Counted from the first letter of the stretch, positions 17,129 through 51,664 are shown. The stretch is DNA of 64,000 bases from Tagaea sp. (GCA_965228135.1 OZ245798.1:247656-311655); one strand, 5' to 3'. The notes: generated from the letters alone by a model not told the origin. Translations and numbers: made by a program.

Positions 17129-17267
17129 TTCGGTATTCTCCCGTACTGGACCGGCGTCCTTGTCGGGCGCTGCGGTCGTGGAGGGCAAGTATGTCCCGTT
17201 CGCGCGACCTGCGCACCAGCGAAACTTTCTTGATACCGCCGGTACTTTTTCGATAACCCTGCCGCGA

Positions 17268-18005
17268 TCAGGGAATCTCGAACAAGCGCCCCCAGCCTTG
17301 CACGCGCGATGGCTTCTCGCCGATCAGGCGCAATCCGGTCCAAACGGCGGTCGCGACCGTATCGAAAATCGGAATGCCGAGTTCGCGTTCGAGTTCGGCC
17401 GCGACCTTGCCGCCGCGCATATTGGTGCACAGGATGACGATCGCATCGGGCTTGGCGGCGGCGACGTCGCGGATCATGCGCGCGATCGTCGCTTCGTCGA
17501 TCTCGGCGAAGGCGTAGTTCACGCTTTCGCCCAGATGACGTTCGGCGGCGCAGGTTAGGCCTTCGCGCTCGAAATTCGCGACGATCCGGTCTTGTACGTC
17601 GTCGAGATAGGGCGAGACGAGTCCGTAGCGCTTAACGGCAAAGGTGCGGAACAATTCCATCAGCGCCAGGACCGAGGTGCCGGCTTTCGTGCCGGTGCGT
17701 TCTTCGATCCGCCGGCAAAGCTGGCGATCGGCTTCGAGACCCAGCCAGCTCGACGACGTCCCGTTCCACACGATGGCACCGGCGCGCGCATCGGCCAGCA
17801 ATTCGGCGGCGGCCAATATCGGCGCGTCGTCGAATTGCGCCAGCGCCTTTTCACCCAGCGAGATTTCCGTCACGCGGAAGCGGCCGAAATGGGCGGTCAC
17901 GTCGGGCAGGCCCGCCAGCATCGCGGCGGTGACGGGCTCGAGCACCGTGTTGGAGGACGGCGTGAGCATGCCGATATGCTTGTGCGGCGGCGGAACGGGG
18001 GGCAT
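17268..18005 (-). CDS. Asp/Glu racemase / maleate isomerase / arylmalonate decarboxylase-fold protein (single Cys)
   Basis: GMLTPSSNTVLEP, IVWNGTSSSW, VSPY, ILCTNM. Confidence 0.85.
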   Translation of the reverse strand: MPPVPPPHKHIGMLTPSSNTVLEPVTAAMLAGLPDVTAHFGRFRVTEISLGEKALAQFDDAPILAAAELLADARAGAIVWNGTSSSWLGLEADRQLCRRIEERTGTKAGTSVLALMELFRTFAVKRYGLVSPYLDDVQDRIVANFEREGLTCAAERHLGESVNYAFAEIDEATIARMIRDVAAAKPDAIVILCTNMRGGKVAAELERELGIPIFDTVATAVWTGLRLIGEKPSRVQGWGRLFEIP

Positions 18006-18039
18006 GGAATCGTCGTTCTATGTTAAAAGAGCGGCGACC

Positions 18040-33721: not shown

Positions 33722-34243
33722 CTATGACGAATGCGATGGCGCCGTATCGCGCGGCGGGACCGTGGTTCGCAGCGCATGGCCGATCGCCGCCCCCAGAAGC
33801 GCGCCGCTGGCGACGTCGAGGGGGAAATGCGCACCGAGATAGATCCGGGCCCACATCGTCGCCGCGACGAAGACGACGCCCATAACCGCATCGAGCTTTC
33901 GGCGCGCGACGAGCATCCAACACGCGGCGGCCAGCGTCGCATGGGCCGAGGGCAGGCCATAGGTCGCGGCGTGATGCGCGAGATTGCCGCCGAGCCCCAG
34001 CATGAAAGGGCGCGGGCTGGCGAAAAGATGCTGGAACGCGACCACGGCGGCGGTTGCCAGCGCGGCCGCGACGGCAAGGTGCTGGATTTCACGTATCCGG
34101 TTTTCGGCCCAGAGCCGCAATAGGGGCAAAGCGAGCAGCAGCGGCCAGAACGACAGCATCTGCGCGATCGCGAGCAAGGCAGTCGCGGGATCGTCGTTGG
34201 CGGTTAGCCACAGGAACAGGGCGGTATTGGCGTGGTTCAGCAT
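33722..34243 (-). CDS. PAP2 family phosphatase (BcrC/YbjG-like undecaprenyl-diphosphatase-like)
   Basis: SPRPF, LPSAH and ARIYLGAHFPLD catalytic motifs, hydrophobic. Confidence 0.82.
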   Translation of the reverse strand: MLNHANTALFLWLTANDDPATALLAIAQMLSFWPLLLALPLLRLWAENRIREIQHLAVAAALATAAVVAFQHLFASPRPFMLGLGGNLAHHAATYGLPSAHATLAAACWMLVARRKLDAVMGVVFVAATMWARIYLGAHFPLDVASGALLGAAIGHALRTTVPPRDTAPSHSS

Positions 34244-34412: not shown

Positions 34413-34443
34413 TTGACATGAAATTGATATCCGTCATATGGAA
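34413..34443 (+). promoter_or_regulatory. sigma70-type promoter with imperfect palindrome (IclR operator candidate)
   Basis: TTGACA (34413-18), 16-nt spacer, CATATG. ATCCGTCATATGGAA (34429-43) is an imperfect 15-bp inverted repeat over the -10, in an AT-rich intergenic region. Confidence 0.5.
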
Positions 34444-34478
34444 CTCATGCGGCGGACACAAGCCGCGATGGGAGAGAA

Positions 34479-36203
34479 ATGTCCGGTCGTACGCTCAGCG
34501 TCGTCGAAAGCGGTGAAGGCGAAGCCACACGGGAAATTCCGGGCGCGCAGGCGTTGCGCCGGGGGCTGTCGCTGCTCGACATCGTCGCCGAAAGCGACAA
34601 GCCGCTGCGCTTCGTCGAGATCGCCGAACAATCGGGCCTGTCCAAGCCGACCGCCCATCGCATGCTGGCGACGTTGGTCGAAGCGGGCTTGCTGCGGGTC
34701 GACGAGCGCGACCAGACCTATCGTCTGGGCTTCCGCCTGTTCCGCATGGCGCATCGGGTGTGGAACGAATTCGATCTGCGCGGCGCCGCGTCGCCCGAAC
34801 TCGCAAGGCTCGCGGATCTGACCGGGGAGGCGGTGCGCCTCGCGGTCCTCGACGATACCTCCGTCCTTTATATCGACCAGCGCGACAGCGCCCAGGCCGT
34901 GCGTTTGGGGCTGGGCGTGGGGGCCCGCGTTGCCGCCCATGCCAGCGGGGCGGGCAAGGCGATCGTCGCGCATCTCGATCCCCAGCATCGTCAAACGATG
35001 GTGAGCCGCCTGTCGCTGGAACGCTTCACGCCGAACACGATCGTCGATCCGGTCGAATTCGCGCGCGAGCTCGAACTCACCAAGGGGCGCGGCTACGCCG
35101 TTTCGTTCGGCGAGCAGCATGCCGATATCAGCTCGGTCGCCGCCCCGATTTTCGATCACCGCGCGATCGCCATCGGCGCGATCGCGATCGTCGGACCGTC
35201 CTATCGCATGGGCGTGGACCGGCTTCACGCCTTGGGCCGCGACGCGATCGAAGCCGCGCGCCGCGTCTCGGGCAATGTCGGCCAGCTCGCCATGTCGATC
35301 TCCATCAATCCCCGCCCGCTGGGCCCCGCGCGCGACGATCTGCGCTGCGCCGTGCCGTCGGCCTGTTTCCTGGGCGAAGGCCCGGTGTGGTCGGCCGCCG
35401 ACAAGCGCCTGCTGTTCGTCGATATCCTCGCCCCCTCGGTGATCCTCGCGGACCCGGAAACCGGGCAGTTCGTGTCGAAGCCGATGCCCGAATTGATCGG
35501 CGCGGCCGTGCCGCGCGCGCGCGGCGGCTATCTCGCGGCGACGCAGACCGGCTTCAAGACGTTCGACTGGTCGTCGGACACGATCACGTCCGTCGCCAAT
35601 CCCGAAGCGGGCAAGCCCGGCAATCGCTTCAACGACGGCAAATGCGACCGGCGCGGACGCTTTTGGGCCGGCACGCTGGCGATCACGACCTCGCCCGGCG
35701 AAGGGGCGCTGTATCGCCTCGACCCGGACGGGTCGGTCGCGACGATGGGGAGGGGCTTCCACATCTCCAACGGTCTGGGCTGGAGCCCGGACGACAAGCG
35801 CTTCTACTTCGCCGATTCAGGCACGCGGCGCATTTACGTCTACGATTTCGATATCGACAGCGGCGATATCGCCAATCGCCGCGTCTTCGTGCAATTGCCG
35901 GAGAATGCGGGCATTCCCGACGGGCTGACGGTCGATGCCGAAGGCTTCGTGTGGAGTGCGCATTGGGACGGCTGGTGCGTCACGCGCTACGACCCGGACG
36001 GCAAGGTCGACCGCGTGGTGACGCTGCCGGTTCCGCGCCCCACGAGCTGCTGCTTCGGCGGGCCCGATCTTTCGACGCTTTACATTACGACGGCGCGTAT
36101 CCGCATGTCGCAACGCCAGCTCGCGGAGGCGCCGCTTTCCGGCGGTGTCTTCGCATTGCGTGCCGGCGTGCGCGGCCAAGCCGATACGCCGTTCGCAGGG
36201 TGA
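34479..36203 (+). CDS. IclR-family regulator fused to SMP-30/gluconolactonase domain
   Basis: N-terminal IclR HTH ([10 protein letters not shown]...[12 protein letters not shown]) and effector domain (HASGAGKAI...RGYAVS). C-terminal SMP-30 motifs LGEGP, RFNDG, ISNG, PDG. One uninterrupted 574-aa frame. Confidence 0.9.
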
Positions 36204-36210
36204 TCCATCA

Positions 36211-37214
<1,004 letters not shown>

Positions 37215-37218
<4 letters not shown>

Positions 37219-37982
37219 GCGCCATCTATCCCGATCTCGAAAACCTACCCGTGCTGATCACGGGGGCTGCGTCGGGGATCGGCGCGTCGCTGACGGCACA
37301 TTTCGCGCGCCAAAAAGCGAAGCTGGGTCTGATCGACATCAACGAATCCGGCCTTGCGCAGATTTCCGCCGATGCGAAACGCGACGGTGCGGCCGATGTT
37401 TCGACGTTGAAGATCGATCTGCGCGACGTCGCGGCCTTGCGCAAGGGCATTGCCAATCTCGCCGCCAAGCTCGGCGCGTTCCGCGTGCTGATCAACAACG
37501 CGGGCGACGATGCGCGCTTGGCGGCCGACAAGGTCGAGCCCGATTATTGGGACGACCGCATGGCGGTCAATCTGCGCCACCAGTTCTTCGCGGCGCAAGC
37601 CGTGGCGCCGGGCATGCGAGAAGCGGGCGGGGGATCGATCGTCAATCTCGGCTCGATCTCCTGGATGTTCGGGGCACCCGGTTTGATCGCCTACACGACC
37701 GCCAAATCGGCGGTGATGGGCATGACCAAATCGCTGGCGCGCGAATTTGGGCCGATGGGTATTCGCGTCAACTCGATCGCCCCCGGCATGATCTGGACCG
37801 AGAAGCAAACCGCGCGGGCGAACGCCGACGACCCGGCCAAGCTCGCGCGTTATCTGGAACGGCAGTGCATCAAGGAACCGCTGGAGCCTGCGGACGTATC
37901 GCGGCTCGCACTTTGGCTTGCGTCGGCGGAAGCTCGCCGCGCGTCGGGCCAGACTTACGTGATCGACGGCGGCGTCGTCTAA
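37215..37982 (+). CDS. SDR oxidoreductase resembling Caulobacter-type D-xylose 1-dehydrogenase (XylB-like aldose dehydrogenase)
   Basis: [41 protein letters not shown]. Confidence 0.8.
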
Positions 37983-38022
37983 CCGCCGAACCAATACCAA
38001 AACCCCACAAGGGAGAGGAAAC

Positions 38023-39303
38023 ATGAAGATCAATCGCAGAAACTTCGTCGCGTTGGGTGCCGCCGGTGCCGCCTCGCTCGCCATGCCGTCGATCGTTCGC
38101 GCGCAAGGTGCGGCACCCAGCTTTATGAGCTTCACCTACGCGGAAGATCCGAACCGTCCGTTCGTCCAGGAGGTGCTCGACGGTTTCAAGGCGTCGAGCG
38201 GCATTTCCGTCGAAGTGATCGGCTCGGCCTGGGGCGATACGCAACGCAACATTCTGCTGCGCCAGCGTTCGCGCACGCTGCCGACCACGGCGCAGATTCA
38301 GGACCGTTGGCTGCCCGCGATGGCGTCGATGCCCGAGATCGTCGATCTCGAAAAAGTCTTCGGGAAGGCCGGGCTCGACGCGATGGTCGATCCGGCGGTG
38401 GCTGGAATGGGCCGCATCGACGGCAAGATGATCGGTCTGCCGATCATTTCGGGCTCCATCGGCATGTTCGCGAACATGGAAGTTCTCGCCAAGGCCGGCG
38501 TTTCGTCGATCCCGACGACGCTCGCGGAATTCCGTACGGCGTTGCTCGCGGTGCGCGACAAGGTTCCCAACTCGGTGCCTTACGGCATGGCGACGAAGAA
38601 TCCCGGCTCGGTGCCGCTCGATGTGCTTCTGCTCGTCTGGGCGCATGGCGGTCGGATGATCGACGAGAGCGGCAAAGTGCTCGTCAAATCCGATTCCGGC
38701 CGTGCGTCGATGGAGTTCATGGCCGGATTGATGCGCGACCGCTTGGTGGCGCCGGAAATCGACCGTCCCGACGCGCGCCGTCTGTTCGGACAAGGGAATT
38801 GCGCGTTCTATATCGACGCGCCGCAGGCGCGCAGCTTCGCCCGCAATTTTTCGGGGCGCGGCGAAGCGTTCGACCCGGTCGTGATGCCGATGAAGATGCC
38901 GGTCGCCAACGCCGGCATCAAGCCGGCCTCGATCGAATGGGGCCATCTCGTGTCGATGTTCGCGACCGGCCCGGTCGCGAAGGATTCGCCCGGCGCGCGC
39001 TGGGTCGAATACCTGATGTCGGACGCGGTGCAGACGTCGTTCCCGTTGAAGCTCTCCGCGCTGCCCGGATCGAAGGCCGGTCGCGCGGCGCCCGCGGTGC
39101 AAAGCGACGCGTATCTGCGCAATCTCGTCGCGTCGGCCGGTACGGGCATGAAACACGAGATCGGCGTCTGGTCGAACTCGCCCGAACTCTCGACGATCCT
39201 GACCGAAGAAACGCAAGCGGCGTTGCTCGGCCAGAAGAACGCTTCGGCGGCCGTCGACGCCATGCAGTCGCGCATGGAACAGTCGATGTCGCGCCGGGGT
39301 TGA
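38023..39303 (+). CDS. Carbohydrate ABC substrate-binding protein, Tat-type signal
   Basis: NRRNFVALG...PSIVRAQ signal, SBP_bac_1-like body. Confidence 0.85.
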   Translation: MKINRRNFVALGAAGAASLAMPSIVRAQGAAPSFMSFTYAEDPNRPFVQEVLDGFKASSGISVEVIGSAWGDTQRNILLRQRSRTLPTTAQIQDRWLPAMASMPEIVDLEKVFGKAGLDAMVDPAVAGMGRIDGKMIGLPIISGSIGMFANMEVLAKAGVSSIPTTLAEFRTALLAVRDKVPNSVPYGMATKNPGSVPLDVLLLVWAHGGRMIDESGKVLVKSDSGRASMEFMAGLMRDRLVAPEIDRPDARRLFGQGNCAFYIDAPQARSFARNFSGRGEAFDPVVMPMKMPVANAGIKPASIEWGHLVSMFATGPVAKDSPGARWVEYLMSDAVQTSFPLKLSALPGSKAGRAAPAVQSDAYLRNLVASAGTGMKHEIGVWSNSPELSTILTEETQAALLGQKNASAAVDAMQSRMEQSMSRRG

Positions 39304-39310
39304 GGTGGGC

Positions 39311-40264
39311 ATGACGCAAGTCACGGGAAACGCGGCGGCGGGCGGCGCGATGCCGGCGCCGCCGCGCATCTCGTCCGCCGCGCGTTGGGGCGGGCTGAAA
39401 GCGGGGGAGCGGCGCGTCGGGCTGCTGTTCCTCGCGCCCGCCCTGATCGCGTTCGCGACCGTGATCGCGTGGCCCTTCTTGCGGGCGCTGGGCTACGCGT
39501 TCACGCGCTACGATCTGCAAACGCCCGTACCGCGTTTCGTCGGCCTCGACAATTTCCGGATGATCGTGTCGACGCCGGAAATTCTCGGCAGCTTCGTCAC
39601 GACGGGGATCTATGTCGGCTTGGCGACGGGCTTCACCGTTTTGCTCGGCTTCGCTTGGGCGATGATCCTGAACCAGCCTTTCCGGGGACGCGGCGCCGTC
39701 CGGGCGATGTCGCTGATTCCCTGGGTGCTGCCGTCGACCGTCACGGCTTTTGTTTGGGGTTGGATCTTCAACAGCCGTTTCGGTGTGCTGAACGCGCTGC
39801 TCTTGGAAATCGGCGCGATCGAGTTTCCGGCGGCTTGGCTGTCCACGTCGCAAGGCGCGATGGCGGCGGTCGTCGTCACCAAAGTGTGGCTGTCGATCCC
39901 GCTCTTCATGACCTTCTTTCTGGCGGGTCTGCAAAGCCTCGACCGCGAACAGATCGAAGCCGCGCGCGTGGATGGCGCGGGCAACTGGCCCGTCTTGCGC
40001 GACCACGTGCTGCCGCATTTGCGGCCCGTGCTGCTGGTCGTGATCGTGCTGGGCGTGATCGGCAATCTGCAGCATTTCGACACGATCTACGCGCTGACCG
40101 GCGGTGGCCCTGTGCGCGCCACGGCGGTTCTGTCGATCGAGGTCTATCGCCGCGCCTTCGACCAGTGGGACACGGGCCTTGCCTCGGCGATCGGTCTGCT
40201 CTGGGTCGCGACGATCCTGCCGGCCGCCGCCTATTATCTGCGTCATCTGTTGCGGGGCGTGTGA
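39311..40264 (+). CDS. Carbohydrate ABC permease (MalF-like)
   Basis: FVGLDNF, LAGLQSLDREQIEAARVDGA, LTGGGP. Confidence 0.9.
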   Translation: MTQVTGNAAAGGAMPAPPRISSAARWGGLKAGERRVGLLFLAPALIAFATVIAWPFLRALGYAFTRYDLQTPVPRFVGLDNFRMIVSTPEILGSFVTTGIYVGLATGFTVLLGFAWAMILNQPFRGRGAVRAMSLIPWVLPSTVTAFVWGWIFNSRFGVLNALLLEIGAIEFPAAWLSTSQGAMAAVVVTKVWLSIPLFMTFFLAGLQSLDREQIEAARVDGAGNWPVLRDHVLPHLRPVLLVVIVLGVIGNLQHFDTIYALTGGGPVRATAVLSIEVYRRAFDQWDTGLASAIGLLWVATILPAAAYYLRHLLRGV

Positions 40265-41100
40265 TGCTCGATCTTTCTTCGCCCAGTGCACGGGTCGTAT
40301 TCACGCTGGTACTCGGCGCGATCGCGCTGTTTCTGTTCTTCCCGATCTATTGGCTGACGATCTCGGCCTTCAAGGGCAACGCCGAGCTTTACCGGATCAT
40401 CCCGACCTTGTGGCCGAATGCGCCGGTACTCGACCATTTCGCGACGGCGTTCGGGCGCGGCCGCTTGCTCGACCAGCTGCGCAATAGCTTGGTCGTGTCG
40501 GGCTCGGCGGCGGCCCTCAACACGATGCTGGCGATGTATGCGGGCTATTCCTTCGCCAAGTTCCGCTATGCCGGCCGGCGCTGGACGATGTTGCTGCTGC
40601 TATCGGCCCAGGTCTTTCCGTTCGGCTTGCTGCTGATCAGCCTTTACCCGTTGGTCACGGAGCTTGGCCTCATCGACACGCATCTGGGCCTCACGCTGTC
40701 CTACATCGTGTTCGCGCTGCCGGTGTCGACCTACATGCTCTACAGCTACTTCACCCAAGTGCCGAGCGAGCTCATCGAAGCCGCGCGCGCCGACGGGGCG
40801 GGGGAGCTGCGCATCTTCCACACGATCGTGCTGCCGGTCTCCGTACCCGCCCTCGTCACCGTGTTCCTCTACGGCTTCATGTGGTCGTGGAACGATCTGC
40901 TCTATTCGCTGACGCTGATCGTGTCGGAGGACAAGCGCACGATCGGGCCGGGCCTGCTGCTGTCCTATCTCAACGAAGTCAACGCGGATTGGGGCGGGGC
41001 GATGGCCGCGTCGCTGGTCGCGTCGTCCCCTATCGTCGTCGCGTTCGCATTTCTGCAACGCTGGTTCATCCAAGGCGTGACCGCCGGAGCCGTGAAATGA
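40264..41100 (+). CDS. Carbohydrate ABC permease (MalG-like)
   Basis: VPSELIEAARADGA, WSWNDLL. Confidence 0.9.
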   Translation: MLDLSSPSARVVFTLVLGAIALFLFFPIYWLTISAFKGNAELYRIIPTLWPNAPVLDHFATAFGRGRLLDQLRNSLVVSGSAAALNTMLAMYAGYSFAKFRYAGRRWTMLLLLSAQVFPFGLLLISLYPLVTELGLIDTHLGLTLSYIVFALPVSTYMLYSYFTQVPSELIEAARADGAGELRIFHTIVLPVSVPALVTVFLYGFMWSWNDLLYSLTLIVSEDKRTIGPGLLLSYLNEVNADWGGAMAASLVASSPIVVAFAFLQRWFIQGVTAGAVK

Positions 41101-42017
41101 GCAAACTGAAAGGCGTCTTCCCCGTTCTTCCCACGCCGTTCGACCGACAAGGCGCTGTCGACGAGGCCTCGCTGCTGCGCTTGCTGGAGTTCGCCGTGGA
41201 ATCCGGCGCCGACGGTTTCGTCTATCCCGGCATGGCGAGCGAGGTCGAAACATTGACCCCGGCCGAACGCAAAGCTGCCGTCACCGCGCTGGGCAAGGCG
41301 CTGCGCGGGCGGATCAAGTTCGTCGTCGGGGCGAGTGCGGCCGATCCCGACGAAGCCGCCGCGCGTGCGCGCGAAGGGGCCGAAGCCGGCGCCTCGGCCG
41401 CGATGATCATGGCGCCCGCCAAAGCGGGCCAAGACGTCGCCGCCCATATCGCGTTCTATAGCCAAGTCGCCAAGAACTGCCCAATCCCGATCATGTTGCA
41501 GAACGCGCCGGCCCCCAACGGGGCGGGGCTCAAGCCCGAGGCGGTGGTGCAAGTGGCGCTGGCCGTGCCGACCGTGCGCTACGTGAAGGAAGAAACGCTG
41601 CCTTGCGGCCAGCATGTGACCAAGATCCTGGCGGCGGCGGGCGGCAAGCTCGACGGCGTATTCGGCGGGGCGGGTGCACGCTACTTGATCGACGAACTTG
41701 TGCGCGGGGCGTCGGGCACGATGCCCGCGACCGAGATGGCCGACGTGCATGTCGATATCGTGCGTGCCTTCGAAGCCGGCGACGCGAAGAAGGCGCGTTA
41801 CCTTTATTCGCGCACGCTGCCGCTGCTGTTGTTCCAGCAAACCTTCCGCGTGCGCATGACCAAGACCGTGCTGCAAGCGCGCGGCTTGGTCGGGTCCAAC
41901 GCGTCGCGCGCCGCCGGGCCCGTGCCCGACGCCGGCGACAATGTGGAACTTGCCGCGTTGATCGCGGAAGCCGCCGATCTTTTCACCCGCCATCCGGTTC
42001 GCGAGGCCGCGCAATGA
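41097..42017 (+). CDS. DHDPS/NAL-family lyase (Tyr-to-Gln type)
   Basis: GVFPVLPTPF, PGMASE, PIMLQNAP, Schiff-base Lys in YVKEE. Confidence 0.85.
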   Translation: MSKLKGVFPVLPTPFDRQGAVDEASLLRLLEFAVESGADGFVYPGMASEVETLTPAERKAAVTALGKALRGRIKFVVGASAADPDEAAARAREGAEAGASAAMIMAPAKAGQDVAAHIAFYSQVAKNCPIPIMLQNAPAPNGAGLKPEAVVQVALAVPTVRYVKEETLPCGQHVTKILAAAGGKLDGVFGGAGARYLIDELVRGASGTMPATEMADVHVDIVRAFEAGDAKKARYLYSRTLPLLLFQQTFRVRMTKTVLQARGLVGSNASRAAGPVPDAGDNVELAALIAEAADLFTRHPVREAAQ

Positions 42018-43183
42018 GCTTCGATGCGATCAAGAAGGTCGAGACCTTCATCATCTCCATTCCGCGCGACGTGCCCTATCTCGGGCCGTTGCGCGAGGGC
42101 GAGAAGATCAACGAGAAGGGCTATCTGATCCGCAAGGGCAATCGCTCGATCTATCCCAGCAGCGACATGTCGATGCTGATCAAGATCACGTCCGAAAGCG
42201 GCAAGATCGGCTGGGGCGAAACTTACGGCATCGTCGCCCCGCATGCGGTGAAGGCGATCATCGACGACGTGCTCGGCCCCGTGATGGTCGGGCGCAATCC
42301 GGCCGAACCCGTGGTGCTGCACGAAGACCTGTACGATCTGATGCGCGTGCGCGGCTTCTTCGGCGGCTATTACGTCGACAGCCTTGCGGGCGTGGATATC
42401 GCCGTGTGGGATCTTTACGGCAAGCAGACCGGCTTGCCGGTTTCCGCGCTGCTTGGCGGACGTCGCCATGCGTCGCTGCCCGCTTACGTCTCGGGCCTGC
42501 CCAAGGCGACGCTGAAGGAACGCTGCGACCTTGCGGTCGAATGGGTGCGCAAGGGCTACAAGGCGATCAAATTCGCCGCCGCCGTGTCCGACGAAGGCAT
42601 CGTCGCCGAGATGGCCGCGTTGCGCGAAGCGGTCGGGCCCGGGATCGATCTGATGGTCGATCTGCATTGGAAATTCACGTCCGCCGAGGCGATCCGCCTC
42701 ATCCGGCGTCTCGAAGCGCATAACCTCTATTTCGCCGAAGCGCCGTGCGAGCCCGAAGACCTCGAAGGCCAGACGATCGTCGCGCGGGGCATCGGCTGCC
42801 CGCTGGCGCTGGGCGAAGAACTGCGCACGGTGTTCGAATATCGCCCGCGTTTCGAAAAACGCACGATGACGATCATCCAGCCCGAAATGGGCCATACCGG
42901 CATCACCGAGTTCCTGCATATCGGGCGCTTGGCGCATGCGTTCCATGTCGACACGATCCCGCATGCGTCGATCGGCATCGGCGTGTTCATGGCCGCGAGC
43001 TTGCAGGCGACATCGGCGCTGAAGCGCGTGCCGTATCACGAATATCAGCACTCGATCTTCGACAAGAACCTGAAATTCGTGACCGGCAGAATGGCCTGCG
43101 AGAAGGGCCATTACATCCTGCCGGAAGGCCCCGGCATCGGCGTCGAGCCGCATGCCTCCGTATTCGATTACGTGATCGGCTAG
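42014..43183 (+). CDS. Mandelate racemase/muconate lactonising enzyme (enolase superfamily) acid-sugar dehydratase-like
   Basis: GWGE, LAGVDIAVWDL, KAIKF, metal ligands DLHW/EAP/GEE, QPEMGH, PHAS, PEGPGIGVE. Confidence 0.88.
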   Translation: MSFDAIKKVETFIISIPRDVPYLGPLREGEKINEKGYLIRKGNRSIYPSSDMSMLIKITSESGKIGWGETYGIVAPHAVKAIIDDVLGPVMVGRNPAEPVVLHEDLYDLMRVRGFFGGYYVDSLAGVDIAVWDLYGKQTGLPVSALLGGRRHASLPAYVSGLPKATLKERCDLAVEWVRKGYKAIKFAAAVSDEGIVAEMAALREAVGPGIDLMVDLHWKFTSAEAIRLIRRLEAHNLYFAEAPCEPEDLEGQTIVARGIGCPLALGEELRTVFEYRPRFEKRTMTIIQPEMGHTGITEFLHIGRLAHAFHVDTIPHASIGIGVFMAASLQATSALKRVPYHEYQHSIFDKNLKFVTGRMACEKGHYILPEGPGIGVEPHASVFDYVIG

Positions 43184-43187
43184 GGCG

Positions 43188-44108
43188 ATGCGCTTTTCCG
43201 GCATCTATCCCGTCCTCTACGCGTTCTTCCGCGAAGACGGCACGCTCGACGATGCGGCGATGGAAGCCCAAGTCGAACATTGCCTCGACGCGGGCGCGCA
43301 CGGGATCACGGTGCTGGGCCTCGTCACCGAAGTGAACAAGATGACGACCGCCGAACGGCTGCATCTCGTGCGCGTCGTCGGCAAGAAGATCGCCAAGCGT
43401 GTCCCCTATGCCGTGACGATCGCCGAGCCCGACGTCGCGGGGCAGGTGCAATTCGCCAAGGATGCGAAGGAAACCGGCGCCGATTGGGTCATCCTGCAAC
43501 CGCCGCCGGGACCCAAGGTGCCGGAACCCGATCTGCAACGCCATTTCGGCGGCATCGCCGACAAGGTCGATCTGCCGGTCGCGATCCAGAATAATCCTGT
43601 CAATCTGCCGTCCTTCCTGTCGCCCGACGCATTGGTCGAGGTGTGCAAGGCGCATCCGAATATCCGTCTGCTGAAAGCCGAAGGCTGGTCGGTCGAGATC
43701 GCGCGCGTGCTGGATGCGTTGGGCGGCTCGGTCGATGCGTTCGGCGGCCATGGCGGGATCGAATTCTTGTCGCTGTTGCGCAGCGGCGGGGCGGGGCTGA
43801 TCCCGGCCCCCGATTGCGTCGCCTTGCAGGTCGCGTTGTTCGAGGATTTCCAAAGCGGCGATTCCGCGCGCATCGAAAACGCCAAGCGCCTCCACGCGAC
43901 CGCCTTGCCGTTGATCGTGTTCATGACGCGCTCGCTGCCCGGCCTTGTCGCTTACGGCAAGCGTTTGATGGCGCAGCGCTTGGGTCTGTCGCGCACCTAT
44001 GAACGTGCGCCCTTCCATACGCCCACGCAGTTCGGGCTCGACGAATCCGATCGCCTGATCGCCGATATCAAAAACATCGAAAAAACACTCAAACGGAGGA
44101 AACCATGA
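43188..44108 (+). CDS. DHDPS/NAL-family lyase (Tyr-to-Gln type), second copy
   Basis: GIYPVLYAFF, LGLVTE, VAIQNNP, Lys in LLKAE. Confidence 0.85.
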   Translation: MRFSGIYPVLYAFFREDGTLDDAAMEAQVEHCLDAGAHGITVLGLVTEVNKMTTAERLHLVRVVGKKIAKRVPYAVTIAEPDVAGQVQFAKDAKETGADWVILQPPPGPKVPEPDLQRHFGGIADKVDLPVAIQNNPVNLPSFLSPDALVEVCKAHPNIRLLKAEGWSVEIARVLDALGGSVDAFGGHGGIEFLSLLRSGGAGLIPAPDCVALQVALFEDFQSGDSARIENAKRLHATALPLIVFMTRSLPGLVAYGKRLMAQRLGLSRTYERAPFHTPTQFGLDESDRLIADIKNIEKTLKRRKP

Positions 44109-45349
44109 AACGTCGTACTTTGCTTGCGGCCGGTACCGCCGCCGCCACGCTCGCGGCCTTGCCGCGCGCCCATGCGCAAGCGCCGATCACGCTCGATTTC
44201 CCGTCCTGGCAGGCCGAAGAACCCGGCGTGTCGGCGTGGTGGAAGGCGCTGATCGCCGAGTTCGAAGGCGCCAATCCGGGCGTGAAGATCAATCTCTATT
44301 CGATCCCCTTCGCGCAATACGTCCAGCAGCAGACGGTGCGCTTCGCGGGCAACAACCCGCCGGACATCGTCCATCTGCCGACGCGCAACTTCGCCGCCTT
44401 CGCGTCGCAAGGCTGGCTGGCGCCGATCGACGATCGTATCGCCAAGACGGACATTCTGCAGAATTGGACGCCGTTGCAGGGCGACATGCGCTGGGACGGC
44501 AAGACCCAGGGCGTGCTGTTGATGGGCTACGGCTCGGTCCTCTATTACAACGAAAAGCTCCTGGCGGAAGCGGGCGTGGACGTGCCCAAGACGCCGGACG
44601 AATGGCTCAACGCGATCGAGAAAACGACCAAACGCGATCAAGGCCAGTTCGGGCTTGTCGCCACGTCGGTCGAGCATCCGAATCTGGTGGTCGAGACGGG
44701 GACGTGGCTGATGGGCCAAGGCCTCGATTGGGTGAAGGGCGGCAAATACGTCTTCACCGATCCGCAGGTCGTCGTCGTGGTCGAGCAATATCGCCGCGCG
44801 ATGCGCAACGCGCCCCCGGGCATGGATTCGGCGAAGGGCCGTCAGCTGTTCATCGACGGCAAGGCCGCGTTCCTGCGCGACGGGCCGTGGATCTGGGCGT
44901 TCGTCGAGCGTGCGCCCGAAGCGGTGCGCGCGTCGCTGAAGGTCGCGCGCGTGCCCTTCCCGAAGGAAACCGGCGGCACGTCCAACTCGATCCACATGCC
45001 GGCCAATCTCGCGGCCAACAAGAAGGATCTCGTCTGGAAGTTCATCGAACTTGCCGCCTCGCCGAAATGGCAGTCGGAATACATCTTGAAGGCGGCGTCG
45101 CCGGCCCCGCGCCGTGGCGCCTTGCCGGCCGATGCGGCGGCGCGCTTGCCGCATCTCAAGATCGTGATGGACGCGGCGGCGACGGCGTCGTCGGTGTTCC
45201 CGACGAACCCGGCCTTGCAGGAAGGCTATAACGAGTACGCGTCGATCTTCGGCCGCGCGATGATGCGGTTGATCTCGACCGACGAAACCACGGCCACGGT
45301 GCTCGCCAATCTCCAGCGCGAGCTGGAACGCGCGTTGCCGCTGGCTTGA
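44105..45349 (+). CDS. Carbohydrate ABC substrate-binding protein, second
   Basis: KRRTLL signal ending AHAQ, LYYNEKLL, PKTPDE. Confidence 0.87.
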   Translation: MKRRTLLAAGTAAATLAALPRAHAQAPITLDFPSWQAEEPGVSAWWKALIAEFEGANPGVKINLYSIPFAQYVQQQTVRFAGNNPPDIVHLPTRNFAAFASQGWLAPIDDRIAKTDILQNWTPLQGDMRWDGKTQGVLLMGYGSVLYYNEKLLAEAGVDVPKTPDEWLNAIEKTTKRDQGQFGLVATSVEHPNLVVETGTWLMGQGLDWVKGGKYVFTDPQVVVVVEQYRRAMRNAPPGMDSAKGRQLFIDGKAAFLRDGPWIWAFVERAPEAVRASLKVARVPFPKETGGTSNSIHMPANLAANKKDLVWKFIELAASPKWQSEYILKAASPAPRRGALPADAAARLPHLKIVMDAAATASSVFPTNPALQEGYNEYASIFGRAMMRLISTDETTATVLANLQRELERALPLA

Positions 45350-45360
45350 GGATCGCAGGC

Positions 45361-46245
45361 ATGGGCGCGCGGCGTCAGACCTATATCGCGTACGGGCTTC
45401 TGGCGCCCGCGTTCCTGCTCGTGGCGGGGTTGATCGTCTACCCGCTTTATATGGTGCTGGAGACGAGCTTGCGGGTGGGGCGTGCACCAAATGTCGCGCG
45501 CCTCGACCGCTTGCCGCTCGGCTTCGGCAATTACTGGCGCGCATTGACCGACGACGTGGTCTGGCATTCGGCCGGCGTCACGGTCGTCTACGCCGTCGGC
45601 ACGATCGCGCCGGCGTTTCTGATCGGCTTGCTGCTGGCGCTGTTGCTCAACCGCGACTTTCCCGGCCGGCGCTGGCTGCGCAGTTTGATGCTGCTGCCTT
45701 GGGCCGTGCCCGGCGTCGTCGCGGCGATCGCGTTCCTGTGGATGTTCGACTCCTCCTACGGCGTGGTGAACGCGCAATTGCGCAAGCTGGGTCTCGCCGC
45801 GACGGATATCGCCTGGTTCGTCCACGGCGATACGGCGTTGTTCGCGGTGATTCTGCCGACGATCTGGAAATGCTTCCCGTTCTTCGCGCTGACGCTGCTG
45901 GCGGCCCTTCAATCAGTGCCGCAAACGCTGTACGAGGCCGCGCGCGTCGATGGCGCGAGTCCGTTCCAGATTTTCCGTAACGTCACTTGGCCCGGCATTC
46001 GCGGGGCGGCCGCACTTGCCATCGTGCTGCAAGGCCTGTGGGTGGTGAAGGATTTCGACCTCGTCTTCGCCACGACCGGCGGCGGGCCGTCGCGCGCGAC
46101 GCAAACGCTGTCGCTGCTGGTCTACGAAGAAGCCTTCCAATTCTTCCGCATGGGGCAAGCGTCCGCGATCGGCGTGTTGATGCTGATCCTGTGCGCGTGC
46201 CTCGCGTATCTCGCGATGCGCTGGGGCCGAAAGGATTTCCACTGA
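45361..46245 (+). CDS. Carbohydrate ABC permease (MalF-like)
   Basis: LAALQSVPQTLYEAARVDGA, TGGGP. Confidence 0.9.
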   Translation: MGARRQTYIAYGLLAPAFLLVAGLIVYPLYMVLETSLRVGRAPNVARLDRLPLGFGNYWRALTDDVVWHSAGVTVVYAVGTIAPAFLIGLLLALLLNRDFPGRRWLRSLMLLPWAVPGVVAAIAFLWMFDSSYGVVNAQLRKLGLAATDIAWFVHGDTALFAVILPTIWKCFPFFALTLLAALQSVPQTLYEAARVDGASPFQIFRNVTWPGIRGAAALAIVLQGLWVVKDFDLVFATTGGGPSRATQTLSLLVYEEAFQFFRMGQASAIGVLMLILCACLAYLAMRWGRKDFH

Positions 46246-47081
46246 TGCCCGTTCCGGTCTGGCGCCCTTATCTGCTGCTGGCGACGGCGCTGATCTGCCT
46301 CGTCGTCGTGCTGTTCCCGTTCTATTGGATCATCATCACGTCGATTCTGCCGACCGAGATCCTGCTATCGCGCAATCCGCCGCTATTGCCGCCTTTGGGC
46401 GAGGTGACGTTCGCGGCGTATTTCGAGGTGTTCGCGCGCAAGCCCTTGCTCACCTGGATCTCGAACTCGATGATGATCACGGCGGGCACGCTGGCGATCA
46501 CGATCTCGACGGGGGCGATGGCGGGCTATTCGCTGTCGCGCTTTCGTACCAAGGCGCAGCAGGCGATGGGCTTCGGTCTGCTCGCCAGCAAGATGCTGCC
46601 GGGTTCGCTGATCATCATCCCGTTCTTCATCCTGTTCTCGAAGGCGGGGCTGATCGAATCGAAGCTCGGCGTCATCCTGGCGAACTCGGCGACCGCCGTG
46701 CCGTTCGCCACGTGGCTGCTGAAAGGCTTTTTCGATGCGATCCCGCGCGAATTGGAACAGGCGGCGATGATCGACGGCTGCAACGAATGGCAAGCCTTCC
46801 GCCATATCGTGCTGCCGCTCGCCGCCCCGGGCCTTGCCGCCGCGTCGGCCTATATCGCGATCGTCACCTGGGCCGATCTCGTCTTCGCGCGCACGCTGAA
46901 TTCGAAGCCCGAGAATTGGGTCGTGACCGTCGGCTTGCAATCCTTCACAGGCGAATATCTGGTCGAGTGGGGCGCGCTCATGGCGGCGTCGGCCGTGTCG
47001 CTGTTGCCGATGTTGGTGCTGTTCCTGCTGCTTGAACCCTTCCTGGTGAAGGGCAGCACGCAAGGCTCGCTCGCCAATTAG
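46245..47081 (+). CDS. Carbohydrate ABC permease (MalG-like)
   Basis: IPRELEQAAMIDGC, TWADLVFA. Confidence 0.9.
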   Translation: MPVPVWRPYLLLATALICLVVVLFPFYWIIITSILPTEILLSRNPPLLPPLGEVTFAAYFEVFARKPLLTWISNSMMITAGTLAITISTGAMAGYSLSRFRTKAQQAMGFGLLASKMLPGSLIIIPFFILFSKAGLIESKLGVILANSATAVPFATWLLKGFFDAIPRELEQAAMIDGCNEWQAFRHIVLPLAAPGLAAASAYIAIVTWADLVFARTLNSKPENWVVTVGLQSFTGEYLVEWGALMAASAVSLLPMLVLFLLLEPFLVKGSTQGSLAN

Positions 47082-47275
47082 TCGCGCGATTTAAAAGAAG
47101 TATTTCCGACGGACGGGCCGCAAATATTGCCGTTAGTCCCGTTGGCGTGCGGCGCCTGTCCGCCCTTAACGAATTGTTTTCCTAGTCGTGACCAATCTCG
47201 TTGCGCTATGTGTCGCCGCCGCTGGCGCGGTCGAAGACCGAGTCACACGGTTGGAGCGGCGCTTATGGGACGACA

Positions 47276-47647
47276 ATGGCCAGGATCTATTTGATCGATG
47301 ACGACGATCTTGTTCGAGAAACGCTTCGTTTGGCGCTCGAATCGGCCGCGCACGATGTTTACGCCGTGTCGAACGGGTCGAATATCGCGGAAGATATGGC
47401 GCGACTGCGGCCTGAATTCGTCGTTACCGATATTTTGATGCCCCAGACCGACGGATTGGAGACGATCCGTCGGATCCGCAAAACGGACGCAAACACGAAA
47501 TTGATCGCGATTTCGGGCGGCGGACGGACCCGAAATCTGGATTTTTTGGCGCACGCGAAGGCGTTCGGCGCGAACGCGACGCTCGCCAAGCCTTTTTTGC
47601 CGCGCGTACTCGTCGAGTTGGTCGCGCGGCTCGAAGCCGATGCGTAA
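47276..47647 (+). CDS. Single-domain response regulator (receiver only)
   Basis: LIDDD, VTDILMPQTDG (phospho-Asp), ISGG, LAKPF. Confidence 0.9.
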   Translation: MARIYLIDDDDLVRETLRLALESAAHDVYAVSNGSNIAEDMARLRPEFVVTDILMPQTDGLETIRRIRKTDANTKLIAISGGGRTRNLDFLAHAKAFGANATLAKPFLPRVLVELVARLEADA

Positions 47648-49052
47648 CGTGGCTGCCCGGCAGCCCGGCTTCGTCGATCGGCTCAAGCGGATGATCGGCG
47701 TTTCGGATGCGGATGTGGAGGCGGAGCCCACCGGCCGCCCGCCGGCCGTCGATCGCGATTTCCCGAGCGCCGACAATCCGGAGAAACTGGCCGGCGATTT
47801 CATCGCCCGCCTATCGCGCGTGCTGGGCGAGCGCCGCTCGGTTCTGTCGGGCAATATCAACCTCGTCGGCCTGGGCGCGGTTCGCGAGAAGCTCGGCGTG
47901 GAGTGGCCGCGCTACGCCGCGCGCGCGCAGAAGGTCGCGGACCATTGCATCCGGAACGCCATCGGTTCCGAGGATATTCATTTTCGCTACGACGAGCTTC
48001 GCTTCCTGATCGTGTTTGGGACGTTGAATCGGGATCAAGCGCAAGCGCGGTGCCTGAAAATCGCCGAAGAGATCGCGCGCAGGCTTCTCGGCGAAAAATT
48101 CGAGGAGTCCGCCACGCAAGTCGAGACATGTGTCGTCGAAGCGGACGGGACGCTCGTCTTCTCCGCGCTGACAAAGGAAGACCTGCTGCAACGTCTGACC
48201 GGCGGCGAAGCCGCGACGCGGGAAACATCCGATGCGGATGCGCCGGCATCCGGCGGCGGCGAGGGCGGCGAGAACGGCATGCCGGATTTCTCGTTCGCCA
48301 AGATCGACAAGGCGAAAGCGTTGTCGTTGATTCGGATCGTCTACCGGCCGGTTTGGAGCCTGAAGCAAAAGGCGATCACGACGTATTTCGCGGCACCGAC
48401 GGCGATGAATGTCTTCGGGCGGTTGCTCGAAGACACCGAGCTTCGGCACGAATACGCCAAGACGGTCAGTTCCGTCGAATTCGACATTTTTCTGGCACGC
48501 GCCGCGTTGACCGGTTTGGCGGGGCTGGTCGGCAAGGGGCATCGCGTCTTGCTGTGCTGGCCGGTCGACTTCGAGACGATCGCCACGCGGCAGAGCCGGG
48601 AGACGTATCTCGCGCAGTGCCGCGAAATTCCCGAAGCCGTCCGCCAGCTTCTCGTATTGGAGGTCGATCGGCTGCCGCGCGGCGCGCCGCAGAGCCGCAT
48701 CGTCGAATGCGTTTCGGCGTTGCGCCCGTTTTGCCGTTCGGTGTTCGTGCGAATTCAGCCCGAGATTCGCCGTTTGGCGCCGGTCGCGGGCGCGGGGGCT
48801 GGCGCCGTCGGTTTCGCCTCGCCGCGGCAAATGGACGACGCGCAATGCATGCGCTTGATGAATGAGTTCGCGGAGCAATCCGCGAAACTCGGATTGCGGA
48901 GCTATGTCCGCGGTCTTATCGGCCGCCCCCAGGTCCTTGGCGCGATCGCGGCGGGGATCGATTACATCGACGGGCCGATCGTATATCACGAAGGGGATTT
49001 GCCCGGGCCGATGCGCCGCTTCGACATCGACGAGATCTATCGCGACGTCTGA
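47640..49052 (+). CDS. Hypothetical protein with degenerate GGDEF-like and EAL-like regions
   Basis: DIHFRYDELRFLIVF where GG(D/E)EF is expected. IVYRPVWSLK...TYFAAP, LVLEV and GIDYIDG occupy EAL-domain positions without the catalytic motifs. Confidence 0.55.
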   Translation: MRNVAARQPGFVDRLKRMIGVSDADVEAEPTGRPPAVDRDFPSADNPEKLAGDFIARLSRVLGERRSVLSGNINLVGLGAVREKLGVEWPRYAARAQKVADHCIRNAIGSEDIHFRYDELRFLIVFGTLNRDQAQARCLKIAEEIARRLLGEKFEESATQVETCVVEADGTLVFSALTKEDLLQRLTGGEAATRETSDADAPASGGGEGGENGMPDFSFAKIDKAKALSLIRIVYRPVWSLKQKAITTYFAAPTAMNVFGRLLEDTELRHEYAKTVSSVEFDIFLARAALTGLAGLVGKGHRVLLCWPVDFETIATRQSRETYLAQCREIPEAVRQLLVLEVDRLPRGAPQSRIVECVSALRPFCRSVFVRIQPEIRRLAPVAGAGAGAVGFASPRQMDDAQCMRLMNEFAEQSAKLGLRSYVRGLIGRPQVLGAIAAGIDYIDGPIVYHEGDLPGPMRRFDIDEIYRDV

Positions 49053-51664
49053 ACGGCGTCGGATTTCGCGGGCAGGAAGAGTTTCACCGTCGTGCCGTGG
49101 CCGGCTTCGCTTTCGATCTTCACGTGCCCCCGGGACTGCCGCATGAATCCGTACACCATGCTCAGCCCCAATCCGGTGCCTTTGCCGATCTCTTTGGTCG
49201 TGAAAAACGGATCGAAGGCGCTGGCGAGGACGTCGGGCGTCATGCCGGTGCCGGTGTCGCTGACGGACACCACGACATATTCGCCCGAAGCGGCATGATC
49301 GCCATCCATGGCTTGGGGGGCGTCGAGCGTTTCGTTGCGCGCTTCGATCGATACTTGGCCGCCGCGCGGGGTCGCGTCGCGGGAATTGACCACGAGATTC
49401 AGCACCGCGGTTTCGAATTGAACGGGATCGATCACGACGGGGCTCGGCTCGCCGTGGATTTTCATGTCCACGCGGATGTCGTCGCCGAGCGTCCGCTGAA
49501 GGAGCGGGCGCAGCGCCGTCAATTTCTTCTGCACGCGGATCGTTCGCGGATTCAGCGGCTGGCGTCGCGCGAAAGCCAGAAGCCGCTGGGTGATTTCGGC
49601 GGCGGTCATGCCCGCCGCGCGGATCATCTCGGCGAGTCTCCGCTGCTGGGGGTCGGCGATACGCGCCGCGAGCTGATCGGCGTTGCCCAAGATGACGGTC
49701 AGCAGATTGTTGAAATCATGCGCGACGCCGCCGGTCAGCTTGCCGATCGCCTCCAATTGTTGCGCGTGCCGCAGGCGGGATTCGATGCGCACAAGCTCGC
49801 TGACGTCGCGGAAGAAGATCGATATTCCGCCGATATCGGCGTCGCGGCCTTTATGGCGGTAGGCGCGGACGTCCAGCCAAACGCCGAGCGGCTCGAAATT
49901 GACGCGGGCTTCCATCGGCGCGCCGGTGACCATGACGTTGCGCAATGCCGCGCCGAGAGGCGTGTCGAGTTCCGGAAACACGGCCCACAATTCGCGTTCG
50001 GCAAGCTCGCGCGCGTTCCGCCGGAACAGGATTTCCGCGTTTTCGTTCATCTTCGAGACTCGCCATTCGGCGTCGATCCAAATGACGGCGTCGGACATCG
50101 CGTTGAAGACGCGTTGAAACTCGTCGGTCGCGGATTCCGCGCGCGCGCGCGCCGTCTCGAGCATCGACAGCAAGCGGACATTGTCGACCGCGACGGAGAC
50201 GACCCGCGCGAGCTGCTCCGCCACCGATTCGTCGGTCGCGTCGAAATCGCCGCGCGCGCAATCGGAGAGGAGGATGACGCCCTGCGGCGTGCCTTCCCGG
50301 CTGCGCAGCGGCACGGCGAGCAATCCCGAAATCGGCGGGTGAGCCGCGGCATTGGGACCGAAGCCTTTGCGGTCTGGATGATTCTCGAATGCGCTGCGGG
50401 ACAAGCGCAACGGCTTGGCGTTTCGGAACACCAAGCCGTAGATGCCGCTGCCGTCGGGCAGCCCTTGAAAACCACGCCATTTTGCGTGGATATCGTGCAT
50501 CGAGACCGCGTGGTTGGCCGGAACGAGCGAGCCTTCTTTCATCAAAATGCTTGTGCACAGGCGCGCGTCGGTCAGGTCGCGGGCGAGGGTCGTCGCCGCG
50601 TCCAGCAAGGCGGGAATTTCGCGGATCGCCAGCAAATCGGCCGACGCAGCCGAAAGCGCGCGCAGACGTTCAAGCGTCACCGCATTGGCGCGTTCGCGTT
50701 CGCGTAGGGCGCGGATCACGAGCGCGGCGAGGATCAGCGTCGTCGCGCAAAGAACGATCGCGAAGGCGGCGGTGAGGATCGAACGGTCGTGCCACGCCGA
50801 CAGGACGGCATCTTCGTCCAGCGCCACGACGACGATGAAAGAGTCGTTTTGTCCGACGACTTCGAAACTCGTGATGCGGCGAACCCCGTCGAAGGCGTAT
50901 TTCCACGTCGCGACGCCTTGCTTCCGGTGCGGCAGATGTTCGCGAAGCAGAGGCGAGTTGACGATGTTCGCGTTTCGCCGGCCGGGTGGCAGCGGCGGCG
51001 CGCGCGCGATGATCGATCCGTCGGTCAGATAGAGCGCGACGAGCCCCAGCCCGCCGACGTTGAACGCTTCGAACGACCGCTGAAGACGGCTGACATTGAT
51101 CTCGGCACCGATGACGCCTTGGAACACGCCATGTTCGTCGACGATGCGGCGTGCGACATGGAATGTGACCTTCGGCGGCCCGTCCGGTTCGTGCGTCGTC
51201 GACGGTTTGCCGACGATCAAGCCGTCCATGCCGCCGGCCTTGGCGAGGTCGTAGATCGCGAGCTGAGGCGCGGAAGGGCCGTCGTCGGATGCATCTTCCG
51301 AGCTTCCGATCGGATTTCCCCAGGCGTCCAGAATATAGAACGAACTCGTGTAGGGCAGATCCTTGGAGCGTTGACGCAGGAGGCGCCGCCGGATATCGGG
51401 GGATGCGAGGTCGTTCGGCTGATCCATCCGTAAATCGGTGACCAATCCGGCGAGGATCAGATTCATTCCGTCGACCAGCTGTCTGGTGTTCTGACCGATC
51501 GAACTGGTGAGATTTTCCGCCGTGACGCTCGCTTGATCCAGGGTCCCGCGGCGATCGCGAACGATCTGCAGTGCGGCCGCCCCGATGATCGCGGCGATAA
51601 GCACTATTGTGCCGTAGCGAACAACCGTCGCGACTTTTCCGATATTCAAATCGACCTCTCCCAA
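49037..51664 (-). CDS. Membrane sensor histidine kinase (Cache-like, GAF, PAS, HisKA, HATPase), no receiver domain
   Basis: Two TM segments flank a Cache-like region. GAF (GLLAVPL...GVILL), PAS, H-box LTGGVAHDFNNLL, N-box, DTGTGM, FDPFFTTK, GKGTGLGL. TTG start uncertain. Confidence 0.88.
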   Translation of the reverse strand: MGEVDLNIGKVATVVRYGTIVLIAAIIGAAALQIVRDRRGTLDQASVTAENLTSSIGQNTRQLVDGMNLILAGLVTDLRMDQPNDLASPDIRRRLLRQRSKDLPYTSSFYILDAWGNPIGSSEDASDDGPSAPQLAIYDLAKAGGMDGLIVGKPSTTHEPDGPPKVTFHVARRIVDEHGVFQGVIGAEINVSRLQRSFEAFNVGGLGLVALYLTDGSIIARAPPLPPGRRNANIVNSPLLREHLPHRKQGVATWKYAFDGVRRITSFEVVGQNDSFIVVVALDEDAVLSAWHDRSILTAAFAIVLCATTLILAALVIRALRERERANAVTLERLRALSAASADLLAIREIPALLDAATTLARDLTDARLCTSILMKEGSLVPANHAVSMHDIHAKWRGFQGLPDGSGIYGLVFRNAKPLRLSRSAFENHPDRKGFGPNAAAHPPISGLLAVPLRSREGTPQGVILLSDCARGDFDATDESVAEQLARVVSVAVDNVRLLSMLETARARAESATDEFQRVFNAMSDAVIWIDAEWRVSKMNENAEILFRRNARELAERELWAVFPELDTPLGAALRNVMVTGAPMEARVNFEPLGVWLDVRAYRHKGRDADIGGISIFFRDVSELVRIESRLRHAQQLEAIGKLTGGVAHDFNNLLTVILGNADQLAARIADPQQRRLAEMIRAAGMTAAEITQRLLAFARRQPLNPRTIRVQKKLTALRPLLQRTLGDDIRVDMKIHGEPSPVVIDPVQFETAVLNLVVNSRDATPRGGQVSIEARNETLDAPQAMDGDHAASGEYVVVSVSDTGTGMTPDVLASAFDPFFTTKEIGKGTGLGLSMVYGFMRQSRGHVKIESEAGHGTTVKLFLPAKSDAVQTSR

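Follow-up and report, generated by a model that had tools for sequence, protein, structure and literature searches.

A gene fusing an IclR regulator to an SMP-30-type lactonase heads a predicted sugar oxidation operon in Tagaea sp. and may encode an autorepressor that is also the pathway lactonase

Regulators of the IclR family, including Escherichia coli KdgR and IclR, Haloferax XacR and Thermotoga IclR (Protein Data Bank (PDB) entry 1mkm), recognize operators made of short inverted half-sites in the promoter of the operon being regulated, with XacR controlling an oxidative sugar pathway. Such regulators are usually treated as two-domain proteins. PutA, BirA and NadR, the few known hybrids of enzyme and repressor, are trigger enzymes that act as DNA-binding repressors, the trigger enzyme concept reportedly being associated with Commichau and Stuelke. 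In the MocR/GabR group of GntR-aminotransferase fusions, in ROK repressors and in RpiR-SIS proteins, it is the sensor domain of the regulator that is derived from an enzyme. Here, a gene of Tagaea sp. in which a complete IclR regulator is joined to an SMP-30-type sugar lactonase is described. The gene lies on the + strand at positions 34479-36203 of a 64,000-nucleotide stretch of DNA (GCA_965228135.1 OZ245798.1:247656-311655) that is referred to below as the window. The encoded protein is probably an autorepressor that also serves as the lactonase of the operon it heads and that is released from its operator by a metabolite of the pathway.

A first-pass annotation, made from the sequence alone, had read the gene as one frame encoding a full IclR protein and an SMP-30 domain. 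Indeed, the frame is continuously open for 574 codons from an ATG at 34479, itself preceded by the Shine-Dalgarno-like sequence GGGAGAG (34470-34476, + strand), and its product contains three Pfam domains scoring far above their cut-offs. These correspond to a winged helix-turn-helix (HTH_IclR, PF09339; residues 25-75, 34551-34703; 63.9 bits, cut-off 22), in which T58, H60 and R61 are invariant across 118 homologues, an effector/oligomerization domain (IclR_C, PF01614; residues 95-264, 34761-35270; 135.9 bits, cut-off 24) and an SGL domain (SMP-30/gluconolactonase/LRE, PF08450; residues 298-540; 306.7 bits, cut-off 26.3), with the last matching positions 1-246 of the 246-position profile. The SGL match, together with alignment to PDB entries 4gnb and 7plb, delimits a six-bladed SMP-30/gluconolactonase propeller at residues 288-574 (35340-36200).

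The same division emerged when PDB sequences were searched. Residues 25-267 matched Thermotoga IclR (1mkm; E 9e-28), as well as 5whm and 1tf1, and residues 288-574 aligned end to end with human SMP30/regucalcin (4gnb; E 2e-61) and also with the Caulobacter xylonolactonase XylC (7plb; E 7e-52). No solved chain spanning both the regulator and propeller halves was found in this search. An AlphaFold2 model of the fused protein, built with the 118 homologues, presented a mean predicted local distance difference test (pLDDT) score of 88.5 and a predicted template modelling (pTM) score of 0.78. The propeller of this model superposed on SMP30 (3g4e) and XylC (7plc) with TM scores of 0.94-0.95 and a root-mean-square deviation of 1.5 Å. 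The fused protein reached the equivalog cut-off of none of the named IclR groups in NCBIfam, scoring 188.6 bits against a cut-off of 350 for BhcR, 150 against 284.75 for PcaR/PcaU, 138 against 380 for IclR, 111.6 against 406 for AllR and 110 against 275 for KdgR.

Alignment to SMP30 (4gnb) equates E300, N431 and D481 of the fused protein with the metal ligands E18, N154 and D204, and R383 and N385 with the substrate contacts R101 and N103. All five metal- and substrate-binding residues of SMP30 are thus present, in agreement with the Glu/Asn/Asn/Asp metal-site motifs that had been picked out at first reading. These positions are also retained in the fused homologues, with R383, N385 and N431 found in all 118, E300 in 117 and D481 in 102. 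The full set is, moreover, present in each of 25 loci from other genomes (58-97% identity) that were compared for synteny.

Upstream of the fused gene, a perfect -35 hexamer (TTGACA, 34413-34418, + strand) stands directly ahead of a predicted 26-nt IclR operator (34419-34444, + strand). This operator comprises three half-sites, namely, TGAAAT (34419-34424), ATCCG (34429-34433) and TGGAAC (34439-34444), with tgat separating the first from the second and tcata the second from the third. Many genera share this motif ahead of their fused genes, with aligned upstream regions of fused orthologues yielding the family consensus TGGAAC-N4-TTCCA-N5-TGGAA and with TTGAC(A/T/G) lying immediately 5' of the first half-site in 13 orthologous promoters. 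The imperfect palindrome across the -10 that the first-pass annotation had marked at 34429-34443 is real but incomplete, representing the second and third half-sites of the three. The predicted operator overlaps both the promoter spacer and the likely -10 (CATATG/TCATAT, 34434-34440). This is repressor geometry, and the fused protein would be expected to repress rather than to activate.

The specificity of the predicted operator was considered in several ways. For 31 of 32 fused genes, the upstream region had a best match to the motif of at least 11 of the 16 specified bases, as compared to 11% of 620 control windows taken at random from the same loci. When scored with a weight matrix derived exclusively from 15 promoters of other genera, the site in the window ranked first of 10,687,074 genome positions (26.6 bits, with the runner-up at 22.8), and no second strong site was detected in this genome. 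When loci outside the matrix were scanned over 14-22 kb, the top-scoring site again lay a short distance ahead of the fused gene, this being so in L118 (28.1 bits, about 58 nt upstream), L119 (22.8 bits) and L033 (17.7 bits), where the fused gene, termed G386, is only 30% identical to that considered here. Because a conserved predicted operator lies on the regulator's own promoter, autoregulation by the fused protein, as had been proposed at the outset, appears to be well supported. Another candidate operator type, GTT-N11-AAC, was set aside in favour of the TGGAAC-type motif, since only 3 of 30 loci have it in their upstream region and the window lacks it. Weaker secondary matches to the operator front neighbouring divergent or transporter pathway operons in loci from Devosiaceae (L118:8938-8972) and Bosea (L044:5781-5825); the regulon may extend beyond this single operon in some genomes.

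The fused gene is the first of its operon, as had been claimed. The upstream neighbour, a PAP2 gene (33722-34243), lies on the opposite strand and is followed by a 235-nt intergenic region. On the downstream side, the next gene begins 7 nt past the stop codon of the fused gene and the genes through 47081 overlap or are no more than about 40 nt apart, forming a tight + strand run (34479-47081). By Pfam, the fused gene is followed in this run by genes encoding a MalK/UgpC-type ABC transporter ATPase with a TOBE domain (36211-37218), an XylB-like sugar 1-dehydrogenase of the short-chain dehydrogenase/reductase (SDR) family (adh_short; 37215-37982), presumed to be the source of the lactone, a solute-binding protein and two permeases comprising a first importer (38023-41100), a DHDPS-family enzyme (41097-42017), an enolase-superfamily (MR_MLE) acid-sugar dehydratase (42014-43183), a second DHDPS-family enzyme (43188-44108) and, at the operon end, a second importer again consisting of a solute-binding protein and two permeases (44105-47081). 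The SDR scored 274 bits against the NCBIfam D-xylose 1-dehydrogenase (XylB) model, under its 400-bit cut-off. The closest solved relative of the first DHDPS-family enzyme is L-2-keto-3-deoxyarabonate dehydratase (3fkk; E 1e-26). For the MR_MLE dehydratase, close relatives are 2ppg/4h1z from Sinorhizobium meliloti (Q92ZS5; E 7e-141) and 2nql/4dn1 from Agrobacterium tumefaciens (E 4e-128), structural-genomics targets whose PDB names carry no function. Taken as a whole, the predicted operon is a non-phosphorylative sugar oxidation route.

No other lactonase is encoded in the cluster, as had also been noted previously. The window's genome contains exactly one IclR-SGL fusion and nine further PF08450 matches, all of them stand-alone genes lying well beyond the window, and in the cluster no match to any other lactonase family was obtained. 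Two further candidate fusions in this genome, SGL domains within frames of 518 and 520 amino acids, were discarded as lactonases of some 300 amino acids that follow GC-rich nonsense frames. In 22 of the 25 syntenic loci, genes for the ATPase, SDR, binding protein and permeases come after the fused gene, insofar as the contig extends, with the DHDPS and MR_MLE genes coming next in most, and in none of the 25 was a second SGL gene found.

Taken together, these observations favour a mechanism in which residues 1-264 would serve as an ordinary IclR module, binding the predicted operator from the edge of the -35 across the -10. Such binding would repress the promoter of the fused gene itself and hence the entire 12-gene operon (34479-47081). 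Residues 288-574 would act as a metal-dependent propeller of the SMP30/XylC type, hydrolysing an aldonolactone supplied by the XylB-like dehydrogenase, whose gene is the second one after the fused gene, and would constitute the only lactonase of the pathway. A pathway metabolite, be it the lactone, the aldonate or a 2-keto-3-deoxy acid, would then cause the protein to leave the DNA. With the fused gene at the head of the operon, induction would raise enzyme and repressor levels together, providing a built-in negative feedback, as in PutA.

Several points weigh against this proposal. The intact IclR_C domain could suffice for all sensing, in which case the two halves of the fusion would not be coupled. 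In 16 of the 118 close homologues, D481 is replaced by Asn or Gly, and no replacement lactonase was found nearby in the two D481N loci inspected (P0091 and P0073); catalysis by the propeller may, accordingly, be dispensable, albeit that Asn may still bind the metal in D481N copies. Three loci (L044, L055 and L119) lack the SDR dehydrogenase and the first importer, with the fusion remaining beside the DHDPS and MR_MLE genes and the second importer. A lactone thus need not be formed intracellularly in every carrier, and it is the dehydratase and the DHDPS-like enzyme that are the constant partners of the fusion. Finally, the -10 is weak (3-4 of 6 positions) and, as such, a simple sigma-70 scan called no promoter; the promoter was assigned on the basis of the perfect -35 and the conserved arrangement.

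In terms of gene content, the operon is modular, with the block comprising the SDR, the ATPase and the first importer that is found in the window being missing in some genera (L044, L055 and L119). Because this block is separable from that comprising the fusion, the DHDPS and MR_MLE genes and the second importer, it is suggested that one branch of the operon takes up a sugar and the other an acid or a lactone.

The strictest alternative to an autorepressor that merely shares its polypeptide with the lactonase is a trigger enzyme in which the catalytic state of the propeller, be it occupancy by substrate or product passed on to the IclR pocket, controls DNA binding, such that expression of the operon would follow lactone flux. 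The first-pass annotation had favoured this view, with lactone hydrolysis producing or removing the inducer. Such coupling is plausible, even if we are inclined to doubt that it operates here. An argument in its favour comes from the segment connecting the two halves. The 18-residue linker reported by the first-pass annotation is found where it had been placed, at residues 265-282, within a conserved interdomain segment (residues 265-287, GNxGQxAMSIxINPRPLG...; 35271-35339, + strand). Column counts over the 118 homologues rank residues 264-282 (SGNxGQxAMSIxINPRPLG) among the most conserved of the protein, with P280 retained in 118, G265, N266 and G268 each in 117, M272 in 115, S273 in 114 and R279 in 104. 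The start of this segment is the normal end of IclR_C, leaving AMSIxINPRPLG as the true linker, and in the AlphaFold2 model the connector is a coil with pLDDT values of about 71-84. As a pure spacer tether would not be expected to be so conserved, these counts hint at a docking or allosteric role for the connector, unlike what would be seen with a floppy tether. The pTM score of the model, obtained for a protein of two modules, could point in the same direction.

Also consistent with such cross-talk between catalysis and DNA binding is the persistence of the fusion. An exhaustive search of representatives returned, among the best 150 matches, 34 separate fused clusters at 50% identity, extending down to about 32% identity, such that the fusion has been retained through at least this number of clusters. 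In a tree of SGL propellers, moreover, the fused ones cluster, with 8 label changes as compared to 37 when labels were shuffled and at least four changes forced by well-supported branches, in a sample biased towards fused proteins. This pattern would fit one or a few old fusion events. On the other hand, IclR_C looks complete and could bind an effector by itself.

A further alternative holds that the propeller is only a sensor, namely, a module that binds lactone or sugar with little or no catalysis, the lactone opening spontaneously or elsewhere. Support for this idea comes from the D481N and D481G substitutions and the SDR-less operons that keep the fusion, both described above, and from the loss of ligands in more distant fused proteins. 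G110 (43% identity) carries N385S and D481A, G386 (about 30-32% identity) carries E300D and D481S, and the Tagaea paralogue L072 (45% identity) carries E300D and D481G, with two of three metal ligands being replaced. Given such losses of metal ligands, part of the fused family may use the propeller as a sensor. For the copy considered here, however, a sensor-only role is unlikely, and we give it little credence, given that neither this copy nor any of the 25 syntenic orthologues has lost a residue of the E/R/N/N/D set and that the operon encodes no other lactonase.

The L072 paralogue, in turn, argues for catalysis. This second IclR-SGL gene, from a Tagaea sp. metagenome-assembled genome (MAG; L072:8991-11659, OZ245864.1), has an intact stand-alone SGL lactonase gene immediately upstream. 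That a fusion with decayed ligands adjoins a separate and intact lactonase implies that intact fused propellers are working lactonases, and we infer such activity for the protein encoded in the window, whose genome contains no paralogue of the L072 type. A general rule by which loss of the Asp is accompanied by a separate lactonase was discarded, since it fits L072 but fails for the D481N copies P0091 and P0073.

That the fusion is an artefact, with a frameshift, misassembly or read-through having joined two genes, is refuted by its recurrence at full length in many independent complete genomes and plasmids, with no stop codon in any copy examined and near-identical copies (96-99%) in Tagaea MAGs sharing the same open frame, even if a few of the representatives at 50% identity contain either IclR or SGL alone (P0147, P0150 and P0142; 59-62% identity) and could be split genes or fragments at contig ends.

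A word-indexed homologue search returned 912 matches, the best 120 of which are all about 540-600 amino acids in length and contain the same three Pfam domains; the taxa represented in these 120 are Microvirga, Bosea, Devosia, Rhizobium sullae, Neorhizobium, Prosthecomicrobium and Inquilinaceae. Rather than being split, orthologues are thus fused, both here and in the 34 clusters described above. Matches were also obtained in 138 plasmid or chromid records of PLSDB, 126 of which cover at least 80% of the protein, with carriers including Sinorhizobium (58 records), Agrobacterium (46 records) and Roseibium/Labrenzia. In a sample of 401 Alphaproteobacteria genomes drawn evenly over families, only 4 presented a full-length fused match, and in each of the remaining 84 that gave a match (E <= 1e-40), just a part of the protein was matched, nearly always the lactonase half. 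The distribution of the fusion is patchy; among Alphaproteobacteria of soil and water, it occurs commonly. A split form beside an IclR gene was also sought and dismissed, as the closest stand-alone lactonase (G167; 53% identity, from a genome of the same family) has no IclR match within 10 kb.

At the level of expression, metatranscriptome contigs from relatives of 90-95% identity (biofilm, leaf litter and soil) cross the domain junction; one of these, a fragment of 728 nt, spans 35148-35872. Expression of the fused message in nature follows from this, albeit that such libraries could contain contaminating DNA. The production of a free lactonase from an internal start at M272 is unsupported at this locus, since no Shine-Dalgarno-like sequence precedes this codon in the window or in most orthologues of 67-72% identity, and where such a sequence does precede M272 in orthologues, Gly-Glu codons are its source.

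In Sinorhizobium and Agrobacterium, a fused paralogue of 44-47% identity with intact residues occupies the penultimate position in a rearranged operon of the same gene set (S. meliloti 1021 pSymA, NC_003037.1:389265-390974; Agrobacterium fabrum pAt, NZ_CP048560.1:257435-259117), beside a divergent gene for 2-dehydro-3-deoxygalactonokinase. These paralogue operons gave only weak matches to the operator matrix (11-14 bits), and the paralogues probably read a different site. Many RefSeq gene tables list no feature at these positions. In Faunimonas pinastri, two convergent IclR-SGL genes of 60% and 48% identity to the query are found within 9 kb (L063:10001-11689 and 17007-18680), each adjoining its own ABC transporter genes. 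Within the window, about 1.9 kb (47082-49036) separate the operon end from a gene for a Cache-GAF-PAS histidine kinase (49037-51664, - strand); long open reading frames are present there on both strands (e.g., 47640-49052, + strand, 470 amino acids), with no match in Pfam or NCBIfam.

The doubt expressed in the first-pass annotation as to whether this fusion had been characterized biochemically seems justified, in that a full-text literature search, thin on subscription journals, revealed no study of an IclR-SGL fusion; the one candidate paper mentions merely an iclR-like gene with D-xylose phenotypes. The architecture as such is already recorded in databases, with JGI labelling homologues as 'sugar lactone lactonase YvrE/DNA-binding IclR family transcriptional regulator' and NCBI as SMP-30 family proteins only. 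The latter naming, by referring to the lactonase alone, hides the regulator and calls for correction. In the reading preferred here, that of an autorepressor doubling as pathway lactonase, the fused proteins would represent a widespread and little-studied three-domain form in which a catabolic enzyme is carried on the repressor of its own operon, thereby offering a new case of metabolism-coupled gene control. The defined pair of predicted operator and regulator could be used in biosensors for aldonolactones or aldonates, and copies exist in genetically tractable hosts, namely, on pSymA of S. meliloti 1021 and pAt of A. fabrum. Solving the substrate of the operon would, furthermore, assign a function to several solved structures (2ppg/4h1z and 2nql/4dn1).

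More speculatively, and with considerable reservation, IclR-SGL proteins could form a family of flux-sensing regulators in which turnover by the propeller sets DNA affinity through the conserved connector, with lineages spanning the range from enzyme to receptor. If so, the copy in the window and those of Sinorhizobium and Agrobacterium would stand at the end of a series corresponding to working enzymes, and G110, G386 and the Tagaea paralogue at the end corresponding to non-hydrolysing receptors, together providing a natural series of an enzyme turning into a sensor domain.

Relative to canonical IclR regulators, with which the fused protein shares the module of winged helix-turn-helix and IclR_C, the arrangement described here resembles that of XacR, in that an IclR regulator is found at an oxidative sugar pathway and short inverted half-sites are predicted at the operon promoter. 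Canonical IclR proteins, however, stop after IclR_C at about 250-280 amino acids, whereas the fused protein adds an enzyme domain of 290 amino acids. That domain shares the metal ligands and the substrate Arg and Asn of SMP30/regucalcin (3g4e/4gnb; 40% identity) and XylC (7plb/7plc; 37-38% identity), both of which are free-standing proteins of about 290-300 amino acids with no DNA-binding part. The likeness to XylC extends to the predicted lactonase role adjoining an XylB-like dehydrogenase, with identity to XylC being about equal to that to mammalian SMP30 and the neighbouring SDR scoring under the XylB equivalog cut-off.

As in the trigger enzymes PutA, BirA and NadR, a single polypeptide would be both a pathway enzyme and the repressor of its own pathway genes and, as with PutA, the gene would be autoregulated. 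The DNA-binding fold and the enzyme fold differ from those of the three trigger enzymes and, whereas coupling between catalysis and DNA binding has been shown experimentally for PutA and BirA, it is conjecture for IclR-SGL proteins. MocR/GabR, ROK and RpiR-SIS proteins likewise have a metabolic enzyme fold within a transcription factor, and some IclR-SGL members have lost catalytic residues as well. In those families, however, the enzyme-like domain replaces the effector domain, whereas in IclR-SGL proteins it is added to a complete effector domain and, unlike what is seen in sensor-domain families, the enzyme domain of the Tagaea copy looks catalytically intact.

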